Source: Actinomycetes bacterium (GTDB lineage Bacteria > Actinomycetota > Aquicultoria > Aquicultorales > Aquicultoraceae). From it: a DNA stretch of 64,000 bases. The position numbers were made by a program, and so were the translations under genes. Below the pieces are notes generated by a model that worked only from the letters and a program-made list of their open reading frames with translations, did not search any database and had not been told where the DNA came from. The stretch lies in NCBI GenBank assembly GCA_021794835.1, contig JAJYQA010000001.1, forward strand, positions 3,277 to 67,276, in the 5' to 3' direction. Every line of letters starts with the position of its first letter. Position 1 is the first letter of the stretch. Below, piece after piece: positions 19,344 to 64,000 of this stretch.

Positions 19344-19370
19344 CTACTTCTTTATCTTTTTTAAACAGAT

Positions 19371-19550
19371 AGCCCCGCCTTGCCGTTTCACGAAATACAT
19401 ATTGAAGCCCGCTCTCCGCAGGTGGGTGACCGCCTACCTGCTTTACGAGTCCTCAGTCGAGGAGGCTTTCGCGCTGCAGGTGAGAGAAGATCTCCCTATG
19501 TAATAGTGTTGGCTCTAATATACACTACGTTCCACGCGCAAGGCAGAGCC
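19371..19550 (-). ncRNA. Candidate structured sRNA (about 180 nt, rod-like; 6S-like or riboswitch-like)
   Basis: 5' arm GGCUCUGCCUUGC (19550-19538) pairs with 3' arm GCAAGGCGGGGCU (19383-19371). The helix continues: AGUGUAUAUU (19526-19517) with AAUAUGUAUU (19403-19394), and GAGCC (19515-19511) with GGCUU (19409-19405). No credible ORF; a terminator follows. Confidence 0.35.
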
Positions 19551-19614
19551 AACTTTCTATCTATTAATTTATTTTATCACAAAAATTCTTAAGTGTGTCA
19601 ACAGCAACTTATTT

Positions 19615-51742: not shown

Positions 51743-52510
51743 TTATTTCCCTCCTCCTACAACACTTGCCTTATCTATCAGTAGACCGCCGTTATATCCG
51801 TTTATCGACATATTATTTTCCTGGTCGATTGATACTTTAAGGCCGTAAAACTTAGCGACATCGTTTAAAAACTGCCTCGAGCTAGCATCTTCATTCAAAG
51901 CACTCTTCAGTTTATCGGGATTACCAATGGCTTTTATTGTATATGGAGAGCTTAGTCTAGTCGAGTTTATGAGGATAAAATCGCCAGCACAGCGTATTGA
52001 CGAGGTCGAAATGAGCCTCTGGTTGTTAACCGAGATCGCCTGGGCACCGCCTACCCAGAGAGTATTAACAATAAGTCTAATATCATAATCATGAATCACA
52101 TAGTTATTTGGGTTAGGATCGTCTTTTGGATACTGCGGATTGTCGGCAAGCGTAACGGCCAGTCCCCTGCCTTTGGCTTGAACCAGGCCGGCCGCCGTTT
52201 TTACCTTATTGAGTTCTTTTGTATAGGACGTGAGGATACCTTGGTTCTTTGCCGCAAGTTCCTCGTATTTTGCGATCTGCGCACGCTCGCCTTTAATTTC
52301 GCTCTCTAGCTTACCCCTAGATTTTTCAAGCTCATGTATTGTTTCTATAAGGTTTTTCTTGCGTGTTGAATTAAGAGCCTCTTCATTTCTCTGCTGCGTA
52401 TTAAACGATGTTGCCAGGAGCACACCTAGCACCACACAGACTAGCGCCAGCGAAAGATGCCAATTTATCTTCAACGATATTACCCCACGGGAAAGTATAA
52501 TATTCTCCAA
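51743..52510 (-). CDS. DUF881 domain protein
   Basis: 255 aa, TM plus coiled coil plus the DUF881 core (AKGRGLAVTL..DIRLIVNTLWVGGAQAISVNNQR). Confidence 0.85.
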   Translation of the reverse strand: MENIILSRGVISLKINWHLSLALVCVVLGVLLATSFNTQQRNEEALNSTRKKNLIETIHELEKSRGKLESEIKGERAQIAKYEELAAKNQGILTSYTKELNKVKTAAGLVQAKGRGLAVTLADNPQYPKDDPNPNNYVIHDYDIRLIVNTLWVGGAQAISVNNQRLISTSSIRCAGDFILINSTRLSSPYTIKAIGNPDKLKSALNEDASSRQFLNDVAKFYGLKVSIDQENNMSINGYNGGLLIDKASVVGGGK

Positions 52511-52674
52511 GTATATACGATTGTTTTATTAGTTAGAATATGCCGTAACCAGGTTTAATAAGTAAGCAGTAAGAAGTATGCAGCATGAAGTAGGCAAAAT
52601 ATAGTCTAAAGTTTTTCCTTTTTATCTTTTAACCATTTCACTGTTCTGCCAGTGTGCGCCCGATAAATAGGCAT

Positions 52675-52743
52675 CTACACTCCGATTCACCCATTCACCG
52701 GTCGTTAATTCGACATTTAAAAATTCGTAATTCGACATTCCCT
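52675..52743 (-). repeat. R2 intergenic repeat, copy C
   Basis: Minus strand TAGGGAATGTCGAATTACGAATTTTTAAATGTCGAATTAACGACC GGTGAATG GGTGAATC GGAGTGTAG. TAG is the PMM stop. Confidence 0.8.
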
Positions 52744-54145
52744 AGGTTATTATGTGCTCTATATCTTTAAAGCGATCTTTCTCCCTAGATTCCGTGTATA
52801 TTCTTATTAGCGGCTCAGTCCCCGATGGTCTGACAAGTACCCAGTCGCTACCTTCAAGGGTAAACCTGATGCCATCAACAAAGCTTACATCCATAACTCT
52901 CTCGCCTGCGATCTCCCGAAGGGGATTCTCTTTAAGATCCTTGAGCAGTCGTTCCTTTTTCTCCTGCGGAAGACGCACGTCTACCCGCTGGGTATACAGG
53001 CGGCTATATTTCTCGTATATACCATTGAGTATCTCAGTCAGCGGCTTTTTCTCATATGCCACCATCTCGGCAAGTAACATATCCGCAAGCAAACCATCTT
53101 TTTCCGGAATATGGCCTCCTATGCTTAAACCACCACTCTCCTCGCCACCCATAATAACAGGCTCTTTCATCATAACCTGTGCAATATATTTAAAGCCGAC
53201 AGGCACTTCAACAACGTGCGTGCCGTAAGCCTGCGCTATGCGGTCTAGCAAATGGGTAGTTGCAACGGTCCTAACTATCACGCCCTTAAAGCCCCTGTTC
53301 TTTAGAAGATGTACCGCCACCAGGCTTAATACCTGGTTTGCCGTTATATAGGTACCATCGTAATCAATTGCGCCGAACCTGTCGGCATCACCATCAAGCG
53401 CAAGACCCATATCAGCCTTCATCCTCACGACCTTGTCTCTAAGCTCGCCAAGGTGCATCTCGCTAGGGTCAGGGTATGAGCCGCCAAAGAGTACATCTCG
53501 ATAATTATGTATTGTCTCTACGGTACATCCGGCTTCGGCAAGAAGTGTATCCATCAATCCCTGAGCCGCTCCCCACATTGGGTCAAGGGAAATTTTCAGA
53601 CGGCTTTCCCTTAGCTTTCCGAAGTTAACAAGTGTAGATATATGCTTTGTATAATTTGGCATTGGCTCGATTTCTCTTAGAAGCTCGTGTCCTTCAAGCG
53701 GAGCCGATAGTATCTGCCCGCCCTCACTTATCGAAGCTATGTGCTTTTCGATTTTGTTTGTTATCTCTGGATTGGCCGGACCCGCATATTCGGGGATAAA
53801 TTTAATGCCGTTGTACTCAGGCGGGTTGTGGCTTGCCGTAAGCATAATAGCGCCTGCTGTATTATAAGCCTTTATAGAAAACGCAGTAATAGGGGTAGGC
53901 AAAGCCCTTCTTGCCATATAGACGGGGATGCCATTCCCTAGCATAATAGATATGCACTCAGACGCAAACTTTTCTGCAAAAAAGCGGGTGTCATACCCAA
54001 CGACTATTCCCTTTTCATATAGGCCTTCTTCTTTAAGATGATCTGCTATGGCTTGCGCAACAATCCTAACGTTTGAGATTATGAACGTATCGTTCATAAC
54101 CGCACGCCAACCATCAGTACCGAATTTGATTACTGAGTCTGACAT
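52742..54145 (-). CDS. Phosphoglucomutase/phosphomannomutase (alpha-D-phosphohexomutase)
   Basis: 467 aa with an intact phosphoserine loop TASHNP and metal loop DGDADR. Confidence 0.9.
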   Translation of the reverse strand: MSDSVIKFGTDGWRAVMNDTFIISNVRIVAQAIADHLKEEGLYEKGIVVGYDTRFFAEKFASECISIMLGNGIPVYMARRALPTPITAFSIKAYNTAGAIMLTASHNPPEYNGIKFIPEYAGPANPEITNKIEKHIASISEGGQILSAPLEGHELLREIEPMPNYTKHISTLVNFGKLRESRLKISLDPMWGAAQGLMDTLLAEAGCTVETIHNYRDVLFGGSYPDPSEMHLGELRDKVVRMKADMGLALDGDADRFGAIDYDGTYITANQVLSLVAVHLLKNRGFKGVIVRTVATTHLLDRIAQAYGTHVVEVPVGFKYIAQVMMKEPVIMGGEESGGLSIGGHIPEKDGLLADMLLAEMVAYEKKPLTEILNGIYEKYSRLYTQRVDVRLPQEKKERLLKDLKENPLREIAGERVMDVSFVDGIRFTLEGSDWVLVRPSGTEPLIRIYTESREKDRFKDIEHIIT

Positions 54146-54189
54146 ATTTACCTCGTAGCTCGCTCCTTGTAGAGTCCCTGGACCCTACA

Positions 54190-56694
54190 TTATTCTTCAT
54201 GTTCAATAACCCTACCCACAAACTTTACCAGTCTATCTACTTCGTAATCGGCGTCTTTTTGTGTTTTTCCCTCTGCGTAGATTCGCACAACTGGCTCATC
54301 GGGATCGGGCAGGATTAGTACCCAACCCTCGCTGTTATACAATTTCACCCCATCTACCATCTCGGCTTGGTAATCCTTAGCAAGTTCAAGAACCCTTCTC
54401 ATGACCAGGCCTTTCTTATCCCAGGGACAGAACGTGTTGGAATGGGATAAGTAATATGACGGCAGACTTGCCACAAGCTCGGATAGTGGCCGGCCTTCAG
54501 TAGCCAGGTACTCCATAAGCTGAAAGAATGTGACCACACCATCGTAGGCCGGTAAGAAATCAGGGAATATATAGCCGCCACCCTGCGCCCCAACAAAAAT
54601 TACGTCTTCGTCAAGGGCGGCCTCCATCATTGCTCGTGGGCTAATTTTTGTTCTTATCACGTCTCGCCCGTAACTTGCCGCAATATCTTCTACAATAGAA
54701 GATACGGTTAATGGAACGGCAATTTTCCCCGGCGATCTTACATGCCGGCATGTAAGGTAGATAAAAAGGTGAAGTGCGTCATCGGGCGAGACCGTCCGCC
54801 CCCGATCGTCTACCAGTACAACTTTCTCACCCCCGCTGTCGATCATAATACCGAAATCCGCCTTAAATGTGTCAACTACTTTGGATAGTTGTTGAACTGC
54901 CGCACCAAGCTGCTCTGGCGATATTGTCGTCTTATACTCGCTGGTATAGGTATTCAGGCCTATCACATCGCAGTTTAGCTTCTCTAGTAGGTGTGGCATT
55001 ATAAACGTGGTGCTCCCAAAGGCATAATCAACAACAACCTCAAACCTTCTCTGGCGGATCTTCTCCACGTCGATAACCCGCAGAATTGAGTCCCTGTACA
55101 TCTCAATCGATCTTTGTGGGAATTTGGTTTCGCCAATCTCGGTAAAGAACACTCTTCTGTAATCCTGGCGGTAGTAGTACTTTTCGATGTTCCTCTGTGA
55201 GTCTTCTTTGATATTTATTCCATGCGAGTCAAAAAAATGTATTTCTAAGGATTGCTGATCAAAGGGAGAAGTTCTTATATGTACGCCTCCAACCTCTTGG
55301 CCAGTTTGAATTAAGAACCTGCTGACAGACGCAGGCACTATTCTTAAATCACTGCAGTTTACACCGTTTGAGTTCAAGCCAGCAATCATTGCGCGCTTGA
55401 TCATCCTGGCGGCGCGACTTGCATCCTGACTTACCACTACAGAGGAGCCTTTTTTTAATGTAGTGCCGTAGGCCATCGCAAGCTTTAACGCAAGCTCAAC
55501 CGTAATGTCGATATTTATCAAGCCGCTTACGCCACTTGCGCCGAAGAGACTTCTCATTCCCCTGGATTCCCAGATAAGATTGCTGTTTATAACCGCGTTT
55601 TCATCCACCCTCTTAAACGGATAGATTTTCACATCATGGCTTATAACTGCACCCTCGCCGATTACCGAGTCGTCGCCTACAACAACACCTTCTTCAATAT
55701 GAACGCCGTTTTTAATATCGCAGTTTTTGCCAACCACTGCGCCGTGAATGTGACTTTGCGAGCCAATGTAGGCATTATCCCATATGATACTGCGGTGGGT
55801 GTGAGCTTTGCTTTTCATAACAACATTGTTTCCAATAACCGAATACTCGTCCAGCTCGGCCCCCGGTTCTACTTTTGCGTTCTGCCCTATTACTACCGGA
55901 CCGGATATGTCAACCGAGAGATCGACATCAGCGCCGTCGCCGATCCAGACACTCTCCCTCATTCTAATCCCCGGCGGTTGTATTTTTGATTTTAAATCGA
56001 GGATATCCCGATGTGCCTGCATATACTGCTCAAAATTACCAATATCGCACCAATAGCCATCCATGACGCAGCCGTAAAGCGGCGCCCCTTTTTCTAATAA
56101 CATAGGGTAAAGGTCTTTGCTGAAATCAAATGGCTCGCCCTTGGGGATGTACTTGAATATATCAGGCTCCAGGACATATATGCCGGTATTTACAGTATCG
56201 CTAAATACCTGTCCCCAGTTCGGCTTCTCAAGAAATCTCTCGATTTGCCCCGATTCCTCGGTTATAACAACCCCAAACTCAAGGGGATTTTCGACTCTCT
56301 TCAGGGCAATAGTGGCCATTGCACCTTTTCGCTTATGAAAATCCATCAAATACGAAAGATCAAAATCGGTCATTGCATCCCCGCTTATGACAATAAAGGG
56401 CTCGTCTAAAAAACTCTCTGCCTCTTTAACGCTACCAGCCGTGCCCAGTGGGAAATCTTCAATCGAATACTGCAAGTTCACGCCGGCATCGGCCCCCTTG
56501 CCGAAATAGTTCTTAATAAGCTGGGGGAGAAAATGTAGGGTGGCTACAATATCAACGATTTCATGTTCGCGCAGTAGCTCGAGGATGTAATCCATAACCG
56601 GCCGGTTAAGAACCGGCACCATTGGTTTCGGCTGGTTACTGGTCAAAGGTCTAAGTCGGCTTCCCTCGCCGCCAGCCATAACTACTGCTTTCAT
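54190..56694 (-). CDS. Fusion protein: sugar-1-phosphate nucleotidyltransferase + left-handed beta-helix + phosphohexomutase-like domain
   Basis: 834 aa. The N-terminus carries GGEGSRLRPLT (NTP-transferase), followed by hexapeptide repeats. The C-terminal PGM/PMM-like region has IRTSPFD in place of TASHNP and DSGGEK in place of DGDGDR. Confidence 0.85.
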   Translation of the reverse strand: MKAVVMAGGEGSRLRPLTSNQPKPMVPVLNRPVMDYILELLREHEIVDIVATLHFLPQLIKNYFGKGADAGVNLQYSIEDFPLGTAGSVKEAESFLDEPFIVISGDAMTDFDLSYLMDFHKRKGAMATIALKRVENPLEFGVVITEESGQIERFLEKPNWGQVFSDTVNTGIYVLEPDIFKYIPKGEPFDFSKDLYPMLLEKGAPLYGCVMDGYWCDIGNFEQYMQAHRDILDLKSKIQPPGIRMRESVWIGDGADVDLSVDISGPVVIGQNAKVEPGAELDEYSVIGNNVVMKSKAHTHRSIIWDNAYIGSQSHIHGAVVGKNCDIKNGVHIEEGVVVGDDSVIGEGAVISHDVKIYPFKRVDENAVINSNLIWESRGMRSLFGASGVSGLINIDITVELALKLAMAYGTTLKKGSSVVVSQDASRAARMIKRAMIAGLNSNGVNCSDLRIVPASVSRFLIQTGQEVGGVHIRTSPFDQQSLEIHFFDSHGINIKEDSQRNIEKYYYRQDYRRVFFTEIGETKFPQRSIEMYRDSILRVIDVEKIRQRRFEVVVDYAFGSTTFIMPHLLEKLNCDVIGLNTYTSEYKTTISPEQLGAAVQQLSKVVDTFKADFGIMIDSGGEKVVLVDDRGRTVSPDDALHLFIYLTCRHVRSPGKIAVPLTVSSIVEDIAASYGRDVIRTKISPRAMMEAALDEDVIFVGAQGGGYIFPDFLPAYDGVVTFFQLMEYLATEGRPLSELVASLPSYYLSHSNTFCPWDKKGLVMRRVLELAKDYQAEMVDGVKLYNSEGWVLILPDPDEPVVRIYAEGKTQKDADYEVDRLVKFVGRVIEHEE

Positions 56695-56727
56695 AACTAC
56701 CTCCTAGTTGCTAAAGACAAGTTTTAG

Positions 56728-57369
56728 TTAAGAGAAACGCCTCATAACCCAAACCTCGGTCTCTTTCGGAAGGCTTGAGGTCATTAGCTCTATAATGCTT
56801 TCCATGTTCTTTACAATAGGCATTTTTCTCAGAAACGGCTCTGCCGTAGAGATATTAAGAGTCAGGTCTTTTGTCTTGTAATGCATTGGGATGGCTATAC
56901 GAGGCTTAAGCTGGTTCACAATATCAGCCGCCTGTACCCCGTCTATTGTATATATACCGCCAACGAGGATAAGAAGAACATCGATGCCTTTAAGTGCAGC
57001 AGCTTGTTCCCCGCTAAGCGTAGACTGCCCATAGTCTCCCATATGAGCCAACGTGATCCCATCGATATTAAATTTAAATATAATATTACTACCGCGTTTG
57101 TCCCCTTTAACTTCGTCATGGTAGGATTGAATTCCTTCTATAGTTATGCCTTCAATATTGTATTTTCCTATAGAATCTATAACCGTTGGTGAACCTTCGA
57201 CGGCCGAGACATTTGCATGGTCTTTATGATGATGACTAAGCGTAATTATACCTGCAGATAGCTTAGGCGGCGCGTAGCCGATATATTCGTTATATGGATC
57301 TGTTACAATTTTGGTCCCTTGGTCATCCTCAAATAAAAACATCGAATGTCCCAGCCAGGTTATTTTCAT
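56728..57369 (-). CDS. MBL-fold metal-dependent hydrolase (UPF0173-like)
   Basis: 213 aa, MKITWLGHSMF ... SHHHKDH motif. Confidence 0.8.
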   Translation of the reverse strand: MKITWLGHSMFLFEDDQGTKIVTDPYNEYIGYAPPKLSAGIITLSHHHKDHANVSAVEGSPTVIDSIGKYNIEGITIEGIQSYHDEVKGDKRGSNIIFKFNIDGITLAHMGDYGQSTLSGEQAAALKGIDVLLILVGGIYTIDGVQAADIVNQLKPRIAIPMHYKTKDLTLNISTAEPFLRKMPIVKNMESIIELMTSSLPKETEVWVMRRFS

Positions 57370-57388
57370 TAAATTCCACCGCCTAGTA

Positions 57389-57946
57389 CTAGGTTGTCTT
57401 TATACCACGCAGTATACTTACAGCAAGTTTAAGATATTTTAATCCGGATAAAAGAGAGAGCGCTACTCCAATATAAAAAAGTAAAATCCCAATAGTTTTA
57501 AGCTGGGCGGAGCCGTCGCCGAAGTTCAGCGTCAAGAAGAATACCGCACCCATCAGTGTTGCTGTAGCTAACTTACCCTCGTAGGTAACCCTTATTCGGG
57601 TTCCTAAGTAAGATATATATACCCATCCTATAACCATTAAAATATCCCGGCCAACAACAATTAAAATTGCCCATAGCGGAACAAGGGTGCTAATTTTTAT
57701 ATATAGGGTGACAAGGGCTGAGGCTATAAGTATACGGTCAACTACTGGGTCTGCTACCTTGCCAAACTCAGTTACCTGGTTAAGCCTTCTCGCAGCCTGA
57801 CCATCAAGCCAGTCAGTAAAAGCAGCCAGGCCAAACGATAACGGAGCCAACCAGTGGTAAGCAAAGTTACTGGCAATCGCCGCATAGACGAAGACTGGTA
57901 TTAAAAATAGTCTTGAAAGCGTTAATATATTTGGAAGGTTTAGCAT
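57389..57946 (-). CDS. pgsA: CDP-alcohol phosphatidyltransferase (PgsA-like)
   Basis: 185 aa, D-G-x2-A-R-x8-G-x3-D-x3-D motif (DWLDGQAARRLNQVTEFGKVADPVVDR), about 4 TM. Confidence 0.85.
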   Translation of the reverse strand: MLNLPNILTLSRLFLIPVFVYAAIASNFAYHWLAPLSFGLAAFTDWLDGQAARRLNQVTEFGKVADPVVDRILIASALVTLYIKISTLVPLWAILIVVGRDILMVIGWVYISYLGTRIRVTYEGKLATATLMGAVFFLTLNFGDGSAQLKTIGILLFYIGVALSLLSGLKYLKLAVSILRGIKTT

Positions 57947-57971
57947 TTAGCGCCCCTAAATTCGAAATTCG

Positions 57972-58424
57972 TTAGGCCTCTACTTGTGCCCCATCCTCTG
58001 CCCTTCGCTTGAGGTCAGATAGCATCTGCTTCATGTTCTCGCGCAGTTTCTTTGCAAGTAATGGGTGGATCAACGGTGCGATCATCGGAACTCCAAATTC
58101 AAAGTAAATGCTGAAGGTGACTTTTGTTATCGAACCGTTTGGCTCGAGCTGCCAGAAACCCTTCAATGTTTTGAGATCTCCTTCTACTTGATCGAAATCT
58201 ATCCTATTTTCAGCCGGTTTAATGAAGTCCTTCTCTATCCACCTAATTACACGCTTATCGATCTCGGTTATCCACTCTGAGACAGAGTACCCATCTCCCT
58301 GCTCAAGAATATTAACCTGCTTTACGCCTTCCATGATATCCGAATACTTTTCAAAGTCAGATATTATTGAGAAAAGCTCTGATGGGTCCATGGCTATATC
58401 GATTGTTTCCTCAACTAACGGCAC
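57972..58424 (-). CDS. SRPBCC (cyclase/dehydrase-type) ligand-binding protein
   Basis: 150 aa with START/Bet v1-like alternation and a C-terminal long helix. Confidence 0.65.
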   Translation of the reverse strand: MPLVEETIDIAMDPSELFSIISDFEKYSDIMEGVKQVNILEQGDGYSVSEWITEIDKRVIRWIEKDFIKPAENRIDFDQVEGDLKTLKGFWQLEPNGSITKVTFSIYFEFGVPMIAPLIHPLLAKKLRENMKQMLSDLKRRAEDGAQVEA

Positions 58425-58444
58425 TTTTATCCCTCCTGGATCGG

Positions 58445-59734
58445 TTATGAAGATAGCGACTTGTTCTGCTCCATTGCCTCTCGAAGAACTTTAAGCATAA
58501 AGTCGATCTGCTCATATGTAATAATCAGGGGCGGCTCAATACGAACTACCTTTGGATTGTTTAGCATATGTAGCACGAGTATCCCTTGCTGTTCAAGCTC
58601 ATATATCGTGCCTCCGGCCAATCCCTCATCGGCAAACTCGATGCCAACAAGAAGACCTTTGCCGCGCACATCCACAATTACTCCAGGATACTCTTGTTTT
58701 AGTTTGTTAAGTTTCGCAAGTAGGTACTTGCCTTTTTCGGCAGCTTGTTTAGGCAGGTCTTCTTTGATTATAGTATCAATTGTTGCGTTTGCGGCGGCAC
58801 AGGCAAGCGGATTGCCCCCAAATGTCGAAGTGTGAAGAAGCGGGTCTGTTATGAACGGAGCAAAAGCTTTTGGTGTTGCAATAAAAGCTCCAATAGGCAT
58901 TACGCCACCTCCAAGTGCTTTTGCAAGAGCCATTATATCTGGTATGACGTCCTCATACTCGCAGGCAAACATCCTTCCGGTTCTGCCAAAACCGGTTTGC
59001 ACCTCATCAAGGATAAGTAGAACCCCAGTTTCATTACAGAGGTCTCGCACAGCCCTCAGATACCCATCGGGGGGACAGATAACCCCACCCTCACCCTGGA
59101 TTGGCTCAAGTATAACGGCTGCCGTGTTCCCATTTATCACGGCCTTTAAGGCTTCTATATCGCCAAAAGGGACGTGGTCAACATCGGGGATAAGCGGCTT
59201 AAATGGCTCTCTGTAGACAGACCTTCCGGTCGCACTTAAAGAACCCAAGGACTTGCCATGAAACGCGTTATCTGCTGCGATTATTTGCGTCTTTCCGGTG
59301 GCTGCCCTAGCAAGTTTTAGCGAGCCCTCGACAGCCTCGGTTCCACTGTTACATATAAACGAGTAGGTAAGATCACCTGGAGTGACCTTTGCCAGACGCT
59401 CGCAAAGGTCGGCCATGGGTTTGTTCATTATGGTTCTTGCGCTGGTTTGGGCTATTTTCTTTATTTGATCCTCGACTGCTTTTACCACTTTCGGATGGCA
59501 ATAACCCAAGTTATAGACGCCGTGCCCGCTTAAGAAATCAAGATATTTTTGTCCTTTGGTGTCGTACATATAGACACCTTCAGTCTTGACCTCCAGGGTA
59601 GTGCCTAATATGCGCATCAATTGCGCAAAACCCGGATTTACATATTTCTCGTATTTCTCGAGAGTCTCCTTTACGGTGTCTTCCGCATCTGTAGATGATA
59701 AGTCACCATTCGTATTAATTAGCTCTTCTTTCAA
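58445..59734 (-). CDS. Class III PLP aminotransferase (acetylornithine/putrescine/GABA type)
   Basis: 429 aa, CNSGTEAVE, the DEVQTGFGRTGRMFA block, and a LAKALGGG lysine. TTG start 6 nt after GGGAGG. Confidence 0.85.
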   Translation of the reverse strand: MKEELINTNGDLSSTDAEDTVKETLEKYEKYVNPGFAQLMRILGTTLEVKTEGVYMYDTKGQKYLDFLSGHGVYNLGYCHPKVVKAVEDQIKKIAQTSARTIMNKPMADLCERLAKVTPGDLTYSFICNSGTEAVEGSLKLARAATGKTQIIAADNAFHGKSLGSLSATGRSVYREPFKPLIPDVDHVPFGDIEALKAVINGNTAAVILEPIQGEGGVICPPDGYLRAVRDLCNETGVLLILDEVQTGFGRTGRMFACEYEDVIPDIMALAKALGGGVMPIGAFIATPKAFAPFITDPLLHTSTFGGNPLACAAANATIDTIIKEDLPKQAAEKGKYLLAKLNKLKQEYPGVIVDVRGKGLLVGIEFADEGLAGGTIYELEQQGILVLHMLNNPKVVRIEPPLIITYEQIDFMLKVLREAMEQNKSLSS

Positions 59735-59884
59735 TTGCCGCCTCCCTGGGTAGTTCTAAGCCCTTATCATAAATCAAAGGGTAGACAATTTTTAGTTTTA
59801 AGTTGCAATGGAAGCATTTTTATTTTTTGATTTTTAATTTCTTGCTTGCTCCTTACTGCTACTATTATAGCTGATTTCTGCCTA

Positions 59885-59932
59885 TAACAAAAAAGCCTGC
59901 CTCTACTTAAAAGAGACAGGCTTTTATTTTTT
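59885..59932 (-). terminator. Rho-independent terminator closing the dsr operon
   Basis: AAAAGCCTGCCTCT-ACTTAAA-AGAGACAGGCTTTT (1 mismatch) with T-runs on both strands, starting about 10 nt after the dsrL stop. Confidence 0.8.
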
Positions 59933-59943
59933 CTTACCCTATA

Positions 59944-61629
59944 CTACTGCATATCGATGTAGTTGCATGGGCACTCTTCTGCACATTTCTTACAGCCTAC
60001 GCAGGCATCAAGGTTCATTTTATAGCGTGGCTCGAACTCATGCTTTTCAGCTGGCTTCTTAAACACGCTATAAGTACAGAAGTTGTAGCAGTTTCCGCAA
60101 TCGAAGCACATTCCGCAACTCATACACCTCTCGGTCTCAGCAATGGCAGCTTCGTTTACTAAAGTTGAAACAACCTCATCGAAGTTGCTTACACGGCCTG
60201 CCACTGCTAAGTGCGATTTCTCAGCACGCGGCATACTAGTATAGTATTCCAGTTTCATGGTTGAGTATTTGACAACCGGCGGTGGGTATTCCTTCGGCAA
60301 GTCTTCGCCTTTTATGTAGGCATCAATTGCCTTAGCTGCTTTATGGCCAAGACCAACTGCCTCAGTTACAGTTCCAAGCTTGTTGGTAACATCGCCGCCG
60401 GCAAATACTGCCTCGTCGCTTGTCTGGCCAAATGCGCTACTAGTAGCAATCCAGCCGTTCTCATTGAAGGTCTCAAGACCTATGAAATCCGGACCCTGAC
60501 CGATAGCAGGAAGTATCATATCGGCTTCGATTACAAACTCTGAGCCTTCTACCGGAACTGGCCTTCTGCGACCACTCTCATCCGGCTCGCCTAGTTCCAT
60601 CTTGATGCACTTCAGGCCGGTTACTTTACCGCCATCGCGAATTACCTCAACTGGGGCAGCAAGAAACTCGATATGGATGCCTTCATCCTCAGTATCCTTA
60701 ATTTCCTCATCAAGCGCGGGCATTTCCTCTTTGGTCCTGCGGTAGACGATTTGTGAGTTGGCCCCCAGCCTTAGGGAAACTCTCGCTGCGTCTACTGCAC
60801 TGTTACCGCCACCGATAACAAGAACCTTTTTACCCGAAAGATCCATACTCTCGCCTGTGTTGATCTTGTGTAGGAATTCTACAGCGTTCATTACGCCTTC
60901 GCCTTCCTCGCCCGGTATGCCGAGGTTCCAACCTACATGCGCACCAATACCGAGGAATACGGCCTTGTATTCCTTTTTAAGATCATCAAGAGAGACATCC
61001 TGCCCAATTTTTGTGTTGTACTTAATTTCGACACCTAACGCCTCAATCTTAGCAACTTCAGCATCGATAATATCATCCGGCAGCCTATATGTTGGAATAC
61101 CATACCTCAACATACCGCCAGATCTATCAAATGCTTCAAAGATAGTTACCGGATAACCTCTCCTAGCCAGTTGGAATGCGCAGGATAGTCCAGCTGGACC
61201 AGAACCTACAACAGCAACCTTTTCCGAACGCGTCTCATCGGTTAATTTCTCATGCTGTAGGTTGTTCTGGATACCATAATCCCCGAGAAATCTTTCGATT
61301 TGGTTAATTGAGACTGCTTCGTCTTTTTCTTTTCTATTACAATCGGTCTCGCAAAAATGCGGACAAACTCTTCCAAGTATAGCCGGTATCGGATTAGTTT
61401 CCGTTAGAATTCTCCATGCCTGCTCGTATGCCTGCTCGTAGCTTCTACCGTAATAACCGGTCTGGGCAATTGATGTTAAGAACGATCTTATGTTGTTGCT
61501 ACTCGGGCAGGCATTCTTACAAGGCGGAGTTTTCTCATTGTACTGCGGCCGCAGGTATGCGTCATCTCCCGCACGGCTGTAACTAGTTGCACCTACGGCT
61601 CGCTTTCTAGTTTTAAGTACTACCGCCAT
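59944..61629 (-). CDS. dsrL: DsrL-type NAD(P)H:acceptor oxidoreductase (GltD/NfnB-like flavoprotein with C-terminal 2x[4Fe-4S] ferredoxin domain)
   Basis: ATG at 61629 after AAAGGAGGGA. N-terminal Cys clusters (CKNACPSS, CPHFCETDC), FAD site VAVVGSGPAG, NAD(P)H site VIGGGNSAVD..VYRR, C-terminal CMSCGMCFDCGNC and CVGCKKCAEECPC. Lies downstream of dsrABD. Confidence 0.75.
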   Translation of the reverse strand: MAVVLKTRKRAVGATSYSRAGDDAYLRPQYNEKTPPCKNACPSSNNIRSFLTSIAQTGYYGRSYEQAYEQAWRILTETNPIPAILGRVCPHFCETDCNRKEKDEAVSINQIERFLGDYGIQNNLQHEKLTDETRSEKVAVVGSGPAGLSCAFQLARRGYPVTIFEAFDRSGGMLRYGIPTYRLPDDIIDAEVAKIEALGVEIKYNTKIGQDVSLDDLKKEYKAVFLGIGAHVGWNLGIPGEEGEGVMNAVEFLHKINTGESMDLSGKKVLVIGGGNSAVDAARVSLRLGANSQIVYRRTKEEMPALDEEIKDTEDEGIHIEFLAAPVEVIRDGGKVTGLKCIKMELGEPDESGRRRPVPVEGSEFVIEADMILPAIGQGPDFIGLETFNENGWIATSSAFGQTSDEAVFAGGDVTNKLGTVTEAVGLGHKAAKAIDAYIKGEDLPKEYPPPVVKYSTMKLEYYTSMPRAEKSHLAVAGRVSNFDEVVSTLVNEAAIAETERCMSCGMCFDCGNCYNFCTYSVFKKPAEKHEFEPRYKMNLDACVGCKKCAEECPCNYIDMQ

Positions 61630-61731
61630 ATTTCCCTCCTTTTTAACCCCAGGCGATACCACACCTCACCTAAGGCTTAGTCCAAACTTATTAACCTTAT
61701 TGCCAGTGTGTTCGCCTAAGCGATTATCTTG

Positions 61732-61977
61732 CTAATTAGCAGAGGCCTCTTTATGGGGGAGCTCGATTGAGCTACCACCAAAGTAGCCATATACACACCG
61801 GCCGGAGTCAATAAGCAGCTTTATTGCAGCCTTGCAATCCTGTTTTGATACTTGATCTCCATACTTCGAAGTCATCGCTTTTGTGAGGTCAGTTGATTTC
61901 AGTTTCTTCTGTCCTGCACTCTCAGCAACTAGCTGATACATATCATCTGCGATCTGCTCGATTGAAATCCCAGCCAT
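61732..61977 (-). CDS. dsrD: DsrD-like small winged-helix protein
   Basis: 81 aa, starts 12 nt after the dsrB stop. Lys-rich helix and a C-terminal YGYFGGSS wing resemble DsrD (typically about 78 aa). Confidence 0.65.
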   Translation of the reverse strand: MAGISIEQIADDMYQLVAESAGQKKLKSTDLTKAMTSKYGDQVSKQDCKAAIKLLIDSGRCVYGYFGGSSIELPHKEASAN

Positions 61978-61989
61978 ATTCTACTCCTC

Positions 61990-63066
61990 CTAATATCTAT
62001 TTTGCAGCGACCTTTTGTAGGTCGTTCCTGCATGTCTGAAGTCATCGAGGTGATACTTGGTAAACTCGATGCCAGTCAAATCAAAGAATTTCGGCCAGCC
62101 TATCCGACCGATCCACTCGCCAACACGCTCAAATGGCTTTGCATTTTTGGCGTATACTTCAACGATATTCTTTACCGCATCGGTAACCTCAGGCCATCTT
62201 GGTGGATTATTCGGGATATAAGGAATTGCTAGCTTGGTAAACATCGGTTCTGTCCTGGCGTTAGAAATCTTTCCGCCAACCCAGATTGATACACCATCGT
62301 TTAATGGATCTGACAATGGCATGGCCGGACAAACTGTATAGCAGTTGCCGCAATACATGCACTTATCTTCATCAACCTTAACTGTTGATCTTCCTTCAAT
62401 CGATGTCGGCCTGATCGCGTTGTTCGGGCATGATGCAACAGTTGTCGGAATCTCGCAAAGGTTAGGAAGCGTACTATGATCAATTCTCGGGGGTGTCCTA
62501 TGGACACCGAGGATTGCGATATCCGATGCGTGAACAGCGCCGCACATATTGAGGCAACAAGCTACTGCAAGTCTTACCTTGTGTGGGAGCTTCATCGATG
62601 TAAAGTAGTCTGATAGTTCATCCATAACAACCTTAACCAATCCAGAGGCATCAGTTGCTGATGAGTGGCAGTGTACCCAACCCTGGGTATGAACAACGTT
62701 TGTTATCGACCTACCGGTTCCACCCACTAAAGTAAACTCCTCAAGTTCCTTTATTAGGGGATCGATATTGTCTTTGTTGGCCAGTAGGAACTCTACGTTG
62801 TTTCTGCTGGTAAACCTCAGATAGCCATCAGCATACTTTGCGGCTAATGCGGTTAGCTTTCTCCCAAAATTTGTCGAGATCAACCTTGGGGACGCCGCAC
62901 GTACTGTGTATATGACATCGCCTGATTCCGCAGTATGAGATAATACACCCGGCCTTAGGACTTCGTGATACTTCCACTGGCCATAGTTCTTCTTAATTAG
63001 CGGATGTAGGAACTGCTCATAATGCGGTGGGCCTATATCCGTTCTTCTTTCTGTCGTTGTCGACAT
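61990..63066 (-). CDS. dsrB: Dissimilatory sulfite reductase beta subunit
   Basis: 358 aa: [61 protein letters not shown], and the ferredoxin insert [24 protein letters not shown]. Confidence 0.9.
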
Positions 63067-63157
63067 TTAGTTCTACCTCCTATTACCAAAATCATGCACT
63101 TCAATACCCTTAGGCTTAACTAACTTTTAAGCCTATTGGATATATTGCTAGTTTAAC

Positions 63158-64000
63158 TTAGGCTTCCTCTTCTTCCTCAAAATACTCCTCATAGAAGATG
63201 TACGGATTGTCTCTTGGCTGCTTGACCATTTGCGGTACTGGATCTAGACCAATGCCCTCGAGGAATGTAGCAAGACCGATGCGCTCTATGCACTCGCCGA
63301 TTCTCTCTCTGTTCTTGCCGTGCTCATCCCAGAACTCCCAAATTCTATCGATGAGGTCGTGCATATCTTCAAAGTTGCTCATGTCCATGAATGGTATCAT
63401 GACAGAACCGAAGAGAGCGCCCTCAACGATTGGTGCTTTTGCGCCAAGCGTGATGGCCGCACCGCGCTCTTTGCCTACCCTTAGAGCTTTTGGCAATGTG
63501 TTTATGCAGTGCATGCACTTTACGCAATTGCTGTTGTCGATCTTAATTTCTTTGCCCTCAACACTTATGCATCCAGTTGGGCACTTATCGACTACGGAGC
63601 CCTGGATGTCCATTTCAGAATCAATATACTCTGCGAACGCAGCCTGATCTACCTGAATGTCGTCTTTCCAGATCCCGATGATGCCCATATCAGACCTTGC
63701 AATAGCAGCTGTGCAATCGTTCGGACAACCGGACATTTTAATCTTATACTTATAGTTAAACATTGGCCGATGAAGCTCATCCTGGTAGTTATGAGTTAAA
63801 TCATAACTTAGAGCTAACGTATCATAGCATGCATTCTCGCACCTTGCTGGGCCTACGCAGCAGCTTGGTGTTCTTAAGTCTGATCCGGAACCACCAAGGT
63901 CCCAATTCTTTGCAGTTAGTGCCCGGAACGTTGGCTCAAGCTCATCCGTTACCGTACCCAAGAATACCAGGTCTCCGGTTGAGCCGTGTACGTTGAGAAG
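63158..64000 (-). CDS. dsrA: Dissimilatory sulfite reductase alpha subunit (C-terminal about 280 aa; N-terminus beyond window)
   Basis: The frame is open to the window edge (..LLNVHGSTGDLVFLGTVTDELE..). It carries CCVGPARCENAC, MSGCPNDCTAAIARSD and the ferredoxin insert CPTGC..CVKCMHC. The track start at 63961 is an artefact. Confidence 0.9.
   Translation of the reverse strand, partial: LLNVHGSTGDLVFLGTVTDELEPTFRALTAKNWDLGGSGSDLRTPSCCVGPARCENACYDTLALSYDLTHNYQDELHRPMFNYKYKIKMSGCPNDCTAAIARSDMGIIGIWKDDIQVDQAAFAEYIDSEMDIQGSVVDKCPTGCISVEGKEIKIDNSNCVKCMHCINTLPKALRVGKERGAAITLGAKAPIVEGALFGSVMIPFMDMSNFEDMHDLIDRIWEFWDEHGKNRERIGECIERIGLATFLEGIGLDPVPQMVKQPRDNPYIFYEEYFEEEEEA

Follow-up and report, generated by a model that had tools for sequence, protein, structure and literature searches.

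Metagenome-assembled genomes (MAGs) of Actinomycetota that carry dsrAB, which encode dissimilatory sulfite reductase, together with dsrD (and dsrEFH) have been known since 2018 (Anantharaman et al., PMC6018805), and a study of 2023 described a full Dsr pathway with DsrD and DsrL-2C in Aquicultoria (Diao et al., PMC10591310). In the flavoprotein DsrL, a YRR motif associated with NADP(H) specificity defines type 2 and is absent from DsrL-1; in the DsrL-2 subgroup associated with reductive DsrAB an Arg stands in for the fourth Cys that ligates the distal N-terminal cluster (Cys42 in NfnB), and Ser or Thr is stated for all DsrLs at the position of NfnB Cys39, another ligand of the cluster (Loffler et al. 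2020, PMC7596348). For DsrD, allosteric activation of DsrAB has been demonstrated only with the proteins of A. fulgidus and D. vulgaris (Ferreira et al. 2022, PMC8794893). Here we describe a dsrA-dsrB-dsrD-dsrL locus at one end of a 64-kb stretch of contig JAJYQA010000001.1 (64,000 nucleotides, hereafter “the window”), which its proteins assign to an uncultured Candidatus Aquicultor-like actinomycete (Actinomycetota, class Aquicultoria). A preliminary description of the window had presented the locus as a compact, minimal sulfite-reduction module. We consider it very likely that the window instead holds the 3′ end (dsrA′-dsrB-dsrD-dsrL-terminator) of a longer dsr operon, and that this operon would serve an NADPH-fed, otherwise canonical DsrC-dependent reduction of sulfite or sulfate rather than a self-sufficient mini-pathway.

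The dsr locus, its upstream genes and its host

All genes of the locus lie on the minus strand. The 3′ two-thirds of dsrA (63158-64000, 280 codons) run to the window edge, with the 5′ end of the gene beyond it, and are followed by a complete dsrB (61990-63066, 358 amino acids, aa), a dsrD-like gene (61732-61977, 81 aa) and dsrL (59944-61629, 561 aa). The 81-aa open reading frame (ORF) starts 12 nucleotides (nt) past the dsrB stop codon and is preceded by an AGGAGG ribosome-binding site; the ATG of dsrL lies 102 nt past this ORF and is preceded by AAGGAGG. Public protein collections contain the 561-aa form of DsrL, and a longer 572-aa form starting at GTG is absent there. An intrinsic terminator follows dsrL (59891-59925, minus strand); its hairpin has 14 pairs, 6 of them G-C, and a 7-nt loop ahead of a T-run, and the folded RNA has a free energy of -22 kcal/mol (z = -4.62), with none of 200 shuffled sequences being equally stable. 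On re-reading the ORFs we recovered the gene order, sizes and both spacers of the preliminary description, as well as its strong terminator, and domain searches bore out the genes it had placed beyond this terminator, namely a class-III aminotransferase, an SRPBCC protein and pgsA. Rfam and tRNA scans returned nothing in the dsr region.

The same description had noted the lack of dsrC, dsrMK(JOP) and dsrN downstream, and tblastn searches agree, with no homologue of dsrC, dsrMKJOP or dsrN detected in the entire 64-kb window. Since the window stops inside dsrA, however, the absence of upstream dsr genes is not claimable, and the question was addressed from relatives. The contig with the best DsrB match (P0001, 91% identity, from GCA_902810715.1; contig handle L001) is collinear with window positions 51879-64000 (12 kb) at 79-87% nucleotide identity, and immediately 5′ of its dsrA it encodes a CobB-like amidase (dsrN), dsrC, dsrM, dsrK, dsrJ, dsrO and dsrP. 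Three of these score above NCBIfam cut-offs (dsrC by TIGR03342 with 162 bits, dsrK with 569 bits and dsrO with 260 bits), dsrM, dsrJ and dsrP being best matches below the cut-off; the L001 DsrC has the diagnostic C-x10-C-V arm at its C terminus. The same order, dsrN-dsrC-dsrMKJOP-dsrABDL, is present in L008 (Actinomycetota Yes71-11) and in L013 (Thermoleophilia), while dsrK-dsrJ stand ahead of dsrA in L011 and L012, and dsrN-dsrC in Candidatus Aquicultor secundus and primus (dsrC in contigs L003, L009 and L010). Thus, dsr genes are found directly 5′ of dsrA in all actinobacterial relatives for which upstream sequence is available. We infer from these relatives that dsrN-dsrC lie directly upstream of the window dsrA, and dsrMKJOP very probably do so as well; the “minimal” look of the locus is an effect of the window edge inside dsrA.

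Two side observations were made on the A. secundus and A. primus contigs. Table S1 of Diao et al. (PMC10591310) scores dsrC as 0 for both species, yet a gene of the DsrC family is located just 5′ of dsrA in both (L003:7616-7948, L009:1932-2264 and L010:7597-7929); these copies share 88-90% identity with DsrC of L001, and that of A. secundus matches Pfam PF04358. Furthermore, three contigs from ENA (L003, L004 and L005) encode an identical A. secundus DsrB. From locus position ~6013 onward (dsrN-dsrC-dsrABDL and beyond) they have identical called genes, but further upstream they differ wholly, one having a glycosyltransferase/radical-SAM set, another his-operon genes and a third dsrK/J/O/P-like genes; this divergence reflects either rearrangement between strains or assemblies joined at a repeat.

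The actinobacterial background noted in the preliminary description is reflected in the nearest DsrB sequences, which come from Candidatus Aquicultor and Thermoleophilia MAGs: beyond the L001 match, identity is 88% to Candidatus Aquicultor sp., 86% to Candidatus Aquicultor secundus and primus, ~80% to Thermoleophilia and at most 72% to other phyla. The best match among GTDB representatives is 89% identical, a value indicating that the window species differs from them. Proteins exactly as in the window are already present in NCBI, ENA and Logan, on a contig of 83,166 bp, and absent from the JGI sources; short Logan contigs of other runs share 97.6-99.4% DNA identity with the window. GC content (0.41-0.50) and GC skew are uniform along the whole window. 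The order dsrL-aminotransferase-SRPBCC-pgsA-MBL-NTP-transferase/PGM-PGM-DUF881 (PGM, phosphoglucomutase) is kept in the independent assembly L001, and in the A. secundus contigs a 6-kb insert splits the junction of dsrL with the aminotransferase and the genes beyond it.

Identity and type of the encoded proteins

The DsrA fragment, which at 280 aa represents ~71% of the 394-aa L001 orthologue, scores 395 bits against TIGR02064 (3.5e-118) and passes the cut-off of 392.85 despite its truncation; DsrB reaches 490 bits against TIGR02066 (3.6e-147, cut-off 341.5), in keeping with the calls made for both genes beforehand. Over the shared 280 residues, DsrA is 94.6% identical to the full-length L001 protein. 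Its translation shows the siroheme/[4Fe-4S] motifs C-x5-C and C-x3-C (CVGPARC and CPNDC) and a C-x2-C-x2-C ferredoxin insert, and CLNMC is found among the siroheme/[4Fe-4S] cysteine motifs of DsrB. For the placement of DsrA, a neighbor-joining tree was calculated from the 280 shared columns with few references, DsrB paralogues as root and 50 bootstraps. The window sequence falls in an Actinomycetota clade (50/50), which is nested in the clade of all DsrD-linked DsrA sequences including a D. vulgaris-type reference (L089) that was recovered via its DsrD (50/50), and DsrA sequences from viral contigs form a separate clade (50/50). The window DsrA shares 53% identity with the D. vulgaris type and 39-43% with the viral set; these viral genes (rDsrA) are presumably derived from sulfur oxidizers, which is our ground for labeling their clade oxidative. 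The placement among reductive sequences points to DsrAB of the reductive bacterial type, and the Aquicultor DsrAB has also been called reductive (PMC10591310).

A second dsrA-dsrB-dsrL set was encountered in the Thermoleophilia MAG contig JACWAD010000058.1 (L012:6448-10520), directly after dsrABDL and without a dsrD. Its DsrA, DsrB and DsrL are about 51%, 51%, and 46% identical to those of L001, and the set resembles the published Gaiellales SURF_19 case. We dropped its DsrA as a candidate positive control for the viral/oxidative clade, as it joins that clade in 0/50 bootstraps and is instead sister to the reductive clade.

The flavoprotein has the architecture that had been attributed to it, a GltD/NfnB-like protein with a C-terminal 2x[4Fe-4S] domain: Pfam identifies Fer4_20 (44-133), Pyr_redox_2 (148-437) and, at the C terminus, a Fer4_7 dicluster (519-567; residue numbers are those of the 572-aa ORF), and the protein matches NF009410 above cut-off with 622 bits, a model whose NCBIfam name is no more specific than “NAD(P)-binding protein.” Among solved structures, those nearest to the flavoprotein are NfnB-like modules (including 4YLF_B and 5JCA_L, E 1e-90 to 1e-99), and a PDB search yielded no solved DsrL structure. 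Across 29 aligned DsrLs the YRR motif (residues 296-298) is invariant and the C-terminal cysteines are conserved; Arg27 occupies the equivalent of NfnB Cys42 within a conserved S-x-L-R-P motif, which in the window itself reads DDAYLRP. The second DsrL of L012 keeps YRR and has Cys in this column, and it served as an internal control of the Cys type. By YRR and Arg27, typing on the published criteria (PMC7596348), which the preliminary description had suggested, returns type 2 of the reductive subtype (“DsrL-2C”). The protein co-clusters with DsrLs of DsrL-2C-bearing phyla (45-86% identity), and the gene order dsrB-dsrD-dsrL is conserved across phyla. On these sequence features we assign the flavoprotein to the DsrL-2 subtype that occurs alongside reductive DsrAB.

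Identification of the 81-aa protein took a longer route. Of the 80 genome loci fetched, about 70 have a homologue (42-94% identity) directly after dsrB; these loci come from Acidobacteriota, Zixibacteria, Ignavibacteria, Gemmatimonadota, Planctomycetota, Nitrospirota and other lineages. The AlphaFold2 model (predicted local distance difference test, pLDDT, 83) has an H-H-H-E-E topology, that of a three-helix winged helix, and Foldseek superimposes it on DsrD (1wq2_A) over 71 columns with a template modeling (TM) score of 0.77 (target-normalized) and a root-mean-square deviation of 2.2 Å, at an E-value (0.08) that is not significant; DsrD appeared at rank 38, with Fur, MarR and histone-H1 ahead of it, and many generic winged helices fit equally well. 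Searches of PDB sequences gave no match with either the single sequence (phmmer) or the family profile, and 1UCR was not reached. Because direct comparisons were not significant, the link to DsrD had to go through intermediates. An exhaustive profile search gathered 178 clusters, including P0338 (E 7e-11) and P0364 (E 1.6e-8), which both pass the Pfam DsrD gathering score; P0338 is flanked by the end of a dsrB-like ORF on one side and by a dsrN-like gene on the other. When these bridge sequences were combined with Desulfovibrio DsrD, hhalign returned a probability of 98.7%. The wing motif is YGYFGGSS in the window (Y-x-Y-F-G-G-S in the family consensus), and the YWSSGSTT of Desulfobacterota is absent. 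We call the protein a divergent member of a DsrD subfamily, by transitivity, gene context and fold, and not a member of the Pfam family.

Since the Pfam model PF08679 matches only 1 of 34 cross-phylum homologues (E 0.014), automated pipelines miss dsrD in these lineages; published surveys have already scored dsrD as present in Aquicultor (PMC10591310, PMC6018805). In the databases the subfamily (P0121-P0240) goes by “hypothetical protein,” with two misnomers, “ribosomal protein L14” and “NAD kinase.” One protein of 161 aa (P0371) consists of two tandem DsrD-like domains. In the Nitrospinota MAG contig JACRGR010000017.1 (L014:11078-13039), a single in-frame ORF of 653 aa joins a complete DsrD-like domain through a Pro/Ala-rich linker to a complete DsrL, and looks like a natural DsrD-DsrL fusion; such a fusion is not mentioned in the paper on DsrL (Loffler et al. 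2020, PMC7596348). Two other candidate DsrD fusions, P0317 and P0363, were rejected, as they look like frameshift read-throughs.

Pathway, direction and alternative readings

By analogy with published homologues, DsrAB would reduce sulfite with DsrC to yield a DsrC trisulfide, which DsrMKJOP would reduce with menaquinol to regenerate DsrC. DsrD would bind DsrAB and activate it allosterically (PMC8794893), and DsrL-2 would oxidize NADPH, in line with its YRR motif, and pass the electrons via FAD and Fe-S clusters to DsrAB (PMC7596348). Given that Table S1 of Diao et al. (PMC10591310) credits Aquicultor primus and secundus with sat, aprAB and qmoABC as well as dsrABD and dsrL, Aquicultor are full sulfate reducers on paper.

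Several observations weigh against this picture of a reductive, DsrC-dependent operon. The genes expected beyond position 64000, though a strong inference, are known from close relatives, and among these the upstream layouts vary, with dsrMKJOP adjacent in L001, L008 and L013 and not in Aquicultor secundus and primus. The DsrA tree is a neighbor-joining tree on 280 columns with few references, in which the oxidative label of the viral clade is prior knowledge. The window DsrL has Ala24 (codon 24 at 61558-61560) at the equivalent of NfnB Cys39, and not Ser or Thr; the contig of a 97.6%-identical strain (L006) likewise has Ala24 (DDAWLRP), and therefore this residue is not a sequencing error, but Ser or Thr occupies the position in 27 of 27 other DsrD-linked DsrLs aligned. 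The identity of DsrD, as given in the preliminary description, is upheld by its position after dsrB, the winged helix and the bridge sequences, and fails on the Pfam DsrD model and on direct alignment: the protein has no Pfam or NCBIfam match, with no hit to PF08679 even at E <= 10, and hhalign comparisons with the 1UCR sequence and with 18 Desulfovibrio DsrDs alone (E = 0.18) were colinear and not significant. Finally, Aquicultor MAGs also carry dsrE and dsrH, or dsrEFH (PMC10591310, PMC6018805), and the reductive direction is predicted from sequence.

It is in view of these last genes that the cluster might be mainly oxidative or disproportionating, converting sulfur or sulfide to sulfite with reduction of NADP+, or might switch direction. 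DsrL was first known from sulfur oxidizers, dsrE/dsrH or DsrEFH have been reported beside reductive DsrAB in Aquicultor (PMC10591310, PMC6018805), and the related Thermoleophilia contig L012 has a second dsrAB-dsrL set with a Cys-type DsrL. The window, however, has a single dsrAB set, which belongs to the DsrD-linked, reductive clade; a dsrD is present, and the Arg of its DsrL in place of Cys is the variant tied to reductive DsrAB (PMC7596348), and we regard an oxidative role as unlikely. Far less probable still is a self-contained NAD(P)H-linked sulfite reductase of DsrAB, DsrD and DsrL that needs neither DsrC nor DsrMK(JOP), the possibility raised in the preliminary description. It would draw on the 64 kb devoid of dsrC, dsrMKJOP and dsrN, on the strong terminator behind dsrL and on the capacity, in principle, of DsrL-2 to pass NADPH electrons to DsrAB (PMC7596348), but a window that ends inside dsrA is no guide to what precedes this gene, and in relatives dsrA is preceded by dsrC (L003, L009, L010), by dsrN-dsrC-dsrMKJOP (L001, L008, L013) or by dsrK-dsrJ (L011, L012), with L001 being collinear with the window across 12 kb. 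Both DsrC and DsrMK are encoded 5′ of dsrA in L001, L008 and L013, and it is very unlikely that DsrABDL works without them in this species; neither the compact module nor the dispensability of these proteins is supported by the comparison, and the intriguing part of the earlier interpretation stems from the window boundary.

The last two genes could also be no Dsr parts at all, but a generic oxidoreductase of the NfnB/GltD type and an unrelated winged-helix DNA-binding regulator that happen to lie beside dsrAB. The uninformative NCBIfam name and NfnB-like solved relatives of the flavoprotein would fit this, as would the small protein, which fails the Pfam DsrD model and for which Foldseek ranks the winged helices of Fur, MarR and histone-H1 above DsrD. 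Against such a coincidence, dozens of loci of unrelated phyla share the order dsrB-small ORF-dsrL, the YRR and Arg specific to DsrL-2 are present, the profile of the small protein reaches Pfam-positive DsrDs located between dsrB and dsrN, and one Nitrospinota locus fuses both into a single protein; we give this explanation hardly any credence. Lateral movement of dsrAB between phyla is known (PMC6018805), and a dsr fragment could have been joined to actinobacterial housekeeping genes in a chimeric or mis-binned contig. Yet GC content and GC skew are uniform across the window, the dsrL-to-DUF881 junction recurs in the independent assembly L001 and, though with a 6-kb insert, in the A. secundus contigs, and the window shares 97.6-99.4% identity with short Logan contigs of other runs. 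Because of the uniform composition and the same gene order in L001, a chimera is very unlikely, and we leave it only the slightest probability. The reading of the locus as the 3′ end of a longer, DsrC-dependent operon is the one we retain.

An additional idea concerns how DsrL might act on DsrAB within such an operon. A DsrB-DsrD fusion is known in Bilophila. Together with the adjacency of dsrB, dsrD and dsrL in many phyla and the fusion in L014, this would favor a role beyond activation of DsrAB for the Pfam-negative DsrD subfamily, always found between dsrB and dsrL-2, as an adaptor that docks DsrL-2 on DsrAB and opens a direct route from NADPH to sulfite. With Ala24, the distal DsrL cluster of this species would also be without its usual Ser/Thr ligand. 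It is because of the L014 fusion, Ala24 and the blind spot of the DsrD model that coupling of DsrL to DsrAB through DsrD is given a small, non-zero probability; as a general proposal, we think the adaptor improbable.

Other window features and comparison with known systems

Outside the dsr locus, Pfam agrees with the housekeeping genes listed in the preliminary description, namely alaS-ruvX-yceG/mltG, aspS, hisS, relA, secD, secF and two DUF881 genes. A full-length 6S/SsrS RNA is located just downstream of aspS (19368-19552, minus strand; Rfam RF00013, 101.6 bits versus a gathering score of 46.4), and the tRNA scan found no tRNA genes in the whole 64 kb. An 834-aa protein is encoded at 54190-56694 (minus strand), the L001 orthologue of which joins NTP-transferase, left-handed beta-helix and phosphoglucomutase/phosphomannomutase domains; a separate phosphoglucomutase/phosphomannomutase of 467 aa comes next (52742-54145).

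If true, an NADPH-driven sulfite reductase that does without DsrC, in a phylum with no known sulfate reducers, would bear on the electron route to DsrAB. What the evidence shows instead is the published dsr(N)C(MKJOP)ABDL-2C cluster of Aquicultoria and Thermoleophilia, cut by the window edge. Nor does novelty for the phylum stand, with actinobacterial dsrAB and dsrD on record since 2018 (PMC6018805) and a full Dsr pathway in Aquicultoria since 2023 (PMC10591310); the arrangement, lineage and DsrL subtype are already published (PMC6018805, PMC7596348, PMC10591310), and the sequence is already public. The value of the locus is modest: it adds one more species-level example of the dsrABDL-2C cluster, provides a clear case of Pfam and NCBI models missing the DsrD subfamily of newly discovered sulfite-reducing lineages, which is left as “hypothetical protein,” and offers two small leads on DsrD-DsrL coupling, the natural fusion and the Ala at a putative cluster ligand.

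Compared with the small subunits of NfnB and GltD (4YLF_B, 5JCA_L), the window DsrL has in common the Fer4_20 domain and the FAD/NAD(P)H fold; unlike them, it has an extra C-terminal dicluster ferredoxin domain and altered ligands of the distal cluster, sits in a dsr operon and has no NfnA or GltB partner gene nearby. To our knowledge, no enzyme of the actinobacterial DsrL-2 branch has been characterized. The DsrL-2 proteins and dsrABDL-2 loci of Desulfurella amilsii, Acidobacteriota, Zixibacteria and other lineages (PMC7596348) have the same domains, YRR, Arg and position after dsrABD, whereas the window DsrL is 45-58% identical to the non-actinobacterial DsrL-2s fetched and has Ala at the Ser/Thr ligand position. 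The 81-aa protein and D. vulgaris DsrD (1UCR/1WQ2; PF08679; PMC8794893) are both lysine-rich winged helices of ~80 aa, with three helices and a beta-hairpin, encoded directly after dsrB, and are colinear including K-x-x-[IL]-x-x-L and a Y-x-x-x-G-[ST] wing; the differences lie in the low identity (~13-17%), in Y(G/T)YFGGS for YWSSGSTT, and in two Cys where the canonical protein has Val and Leu. The closest counterparts are the dsr clusters of Candidatus Aquicultor and Thermoleophilia, which share with the window the order dsrA-dsrB-dsrD-dsrL, the DsrL subtype and a DsrB that is 86-91% identical, and in L001 also the housekeeping genes downstream; unlike these clusters, the window shows the 3′ part only, and its DsrL has Ala24 where that of the relatives has Ser.

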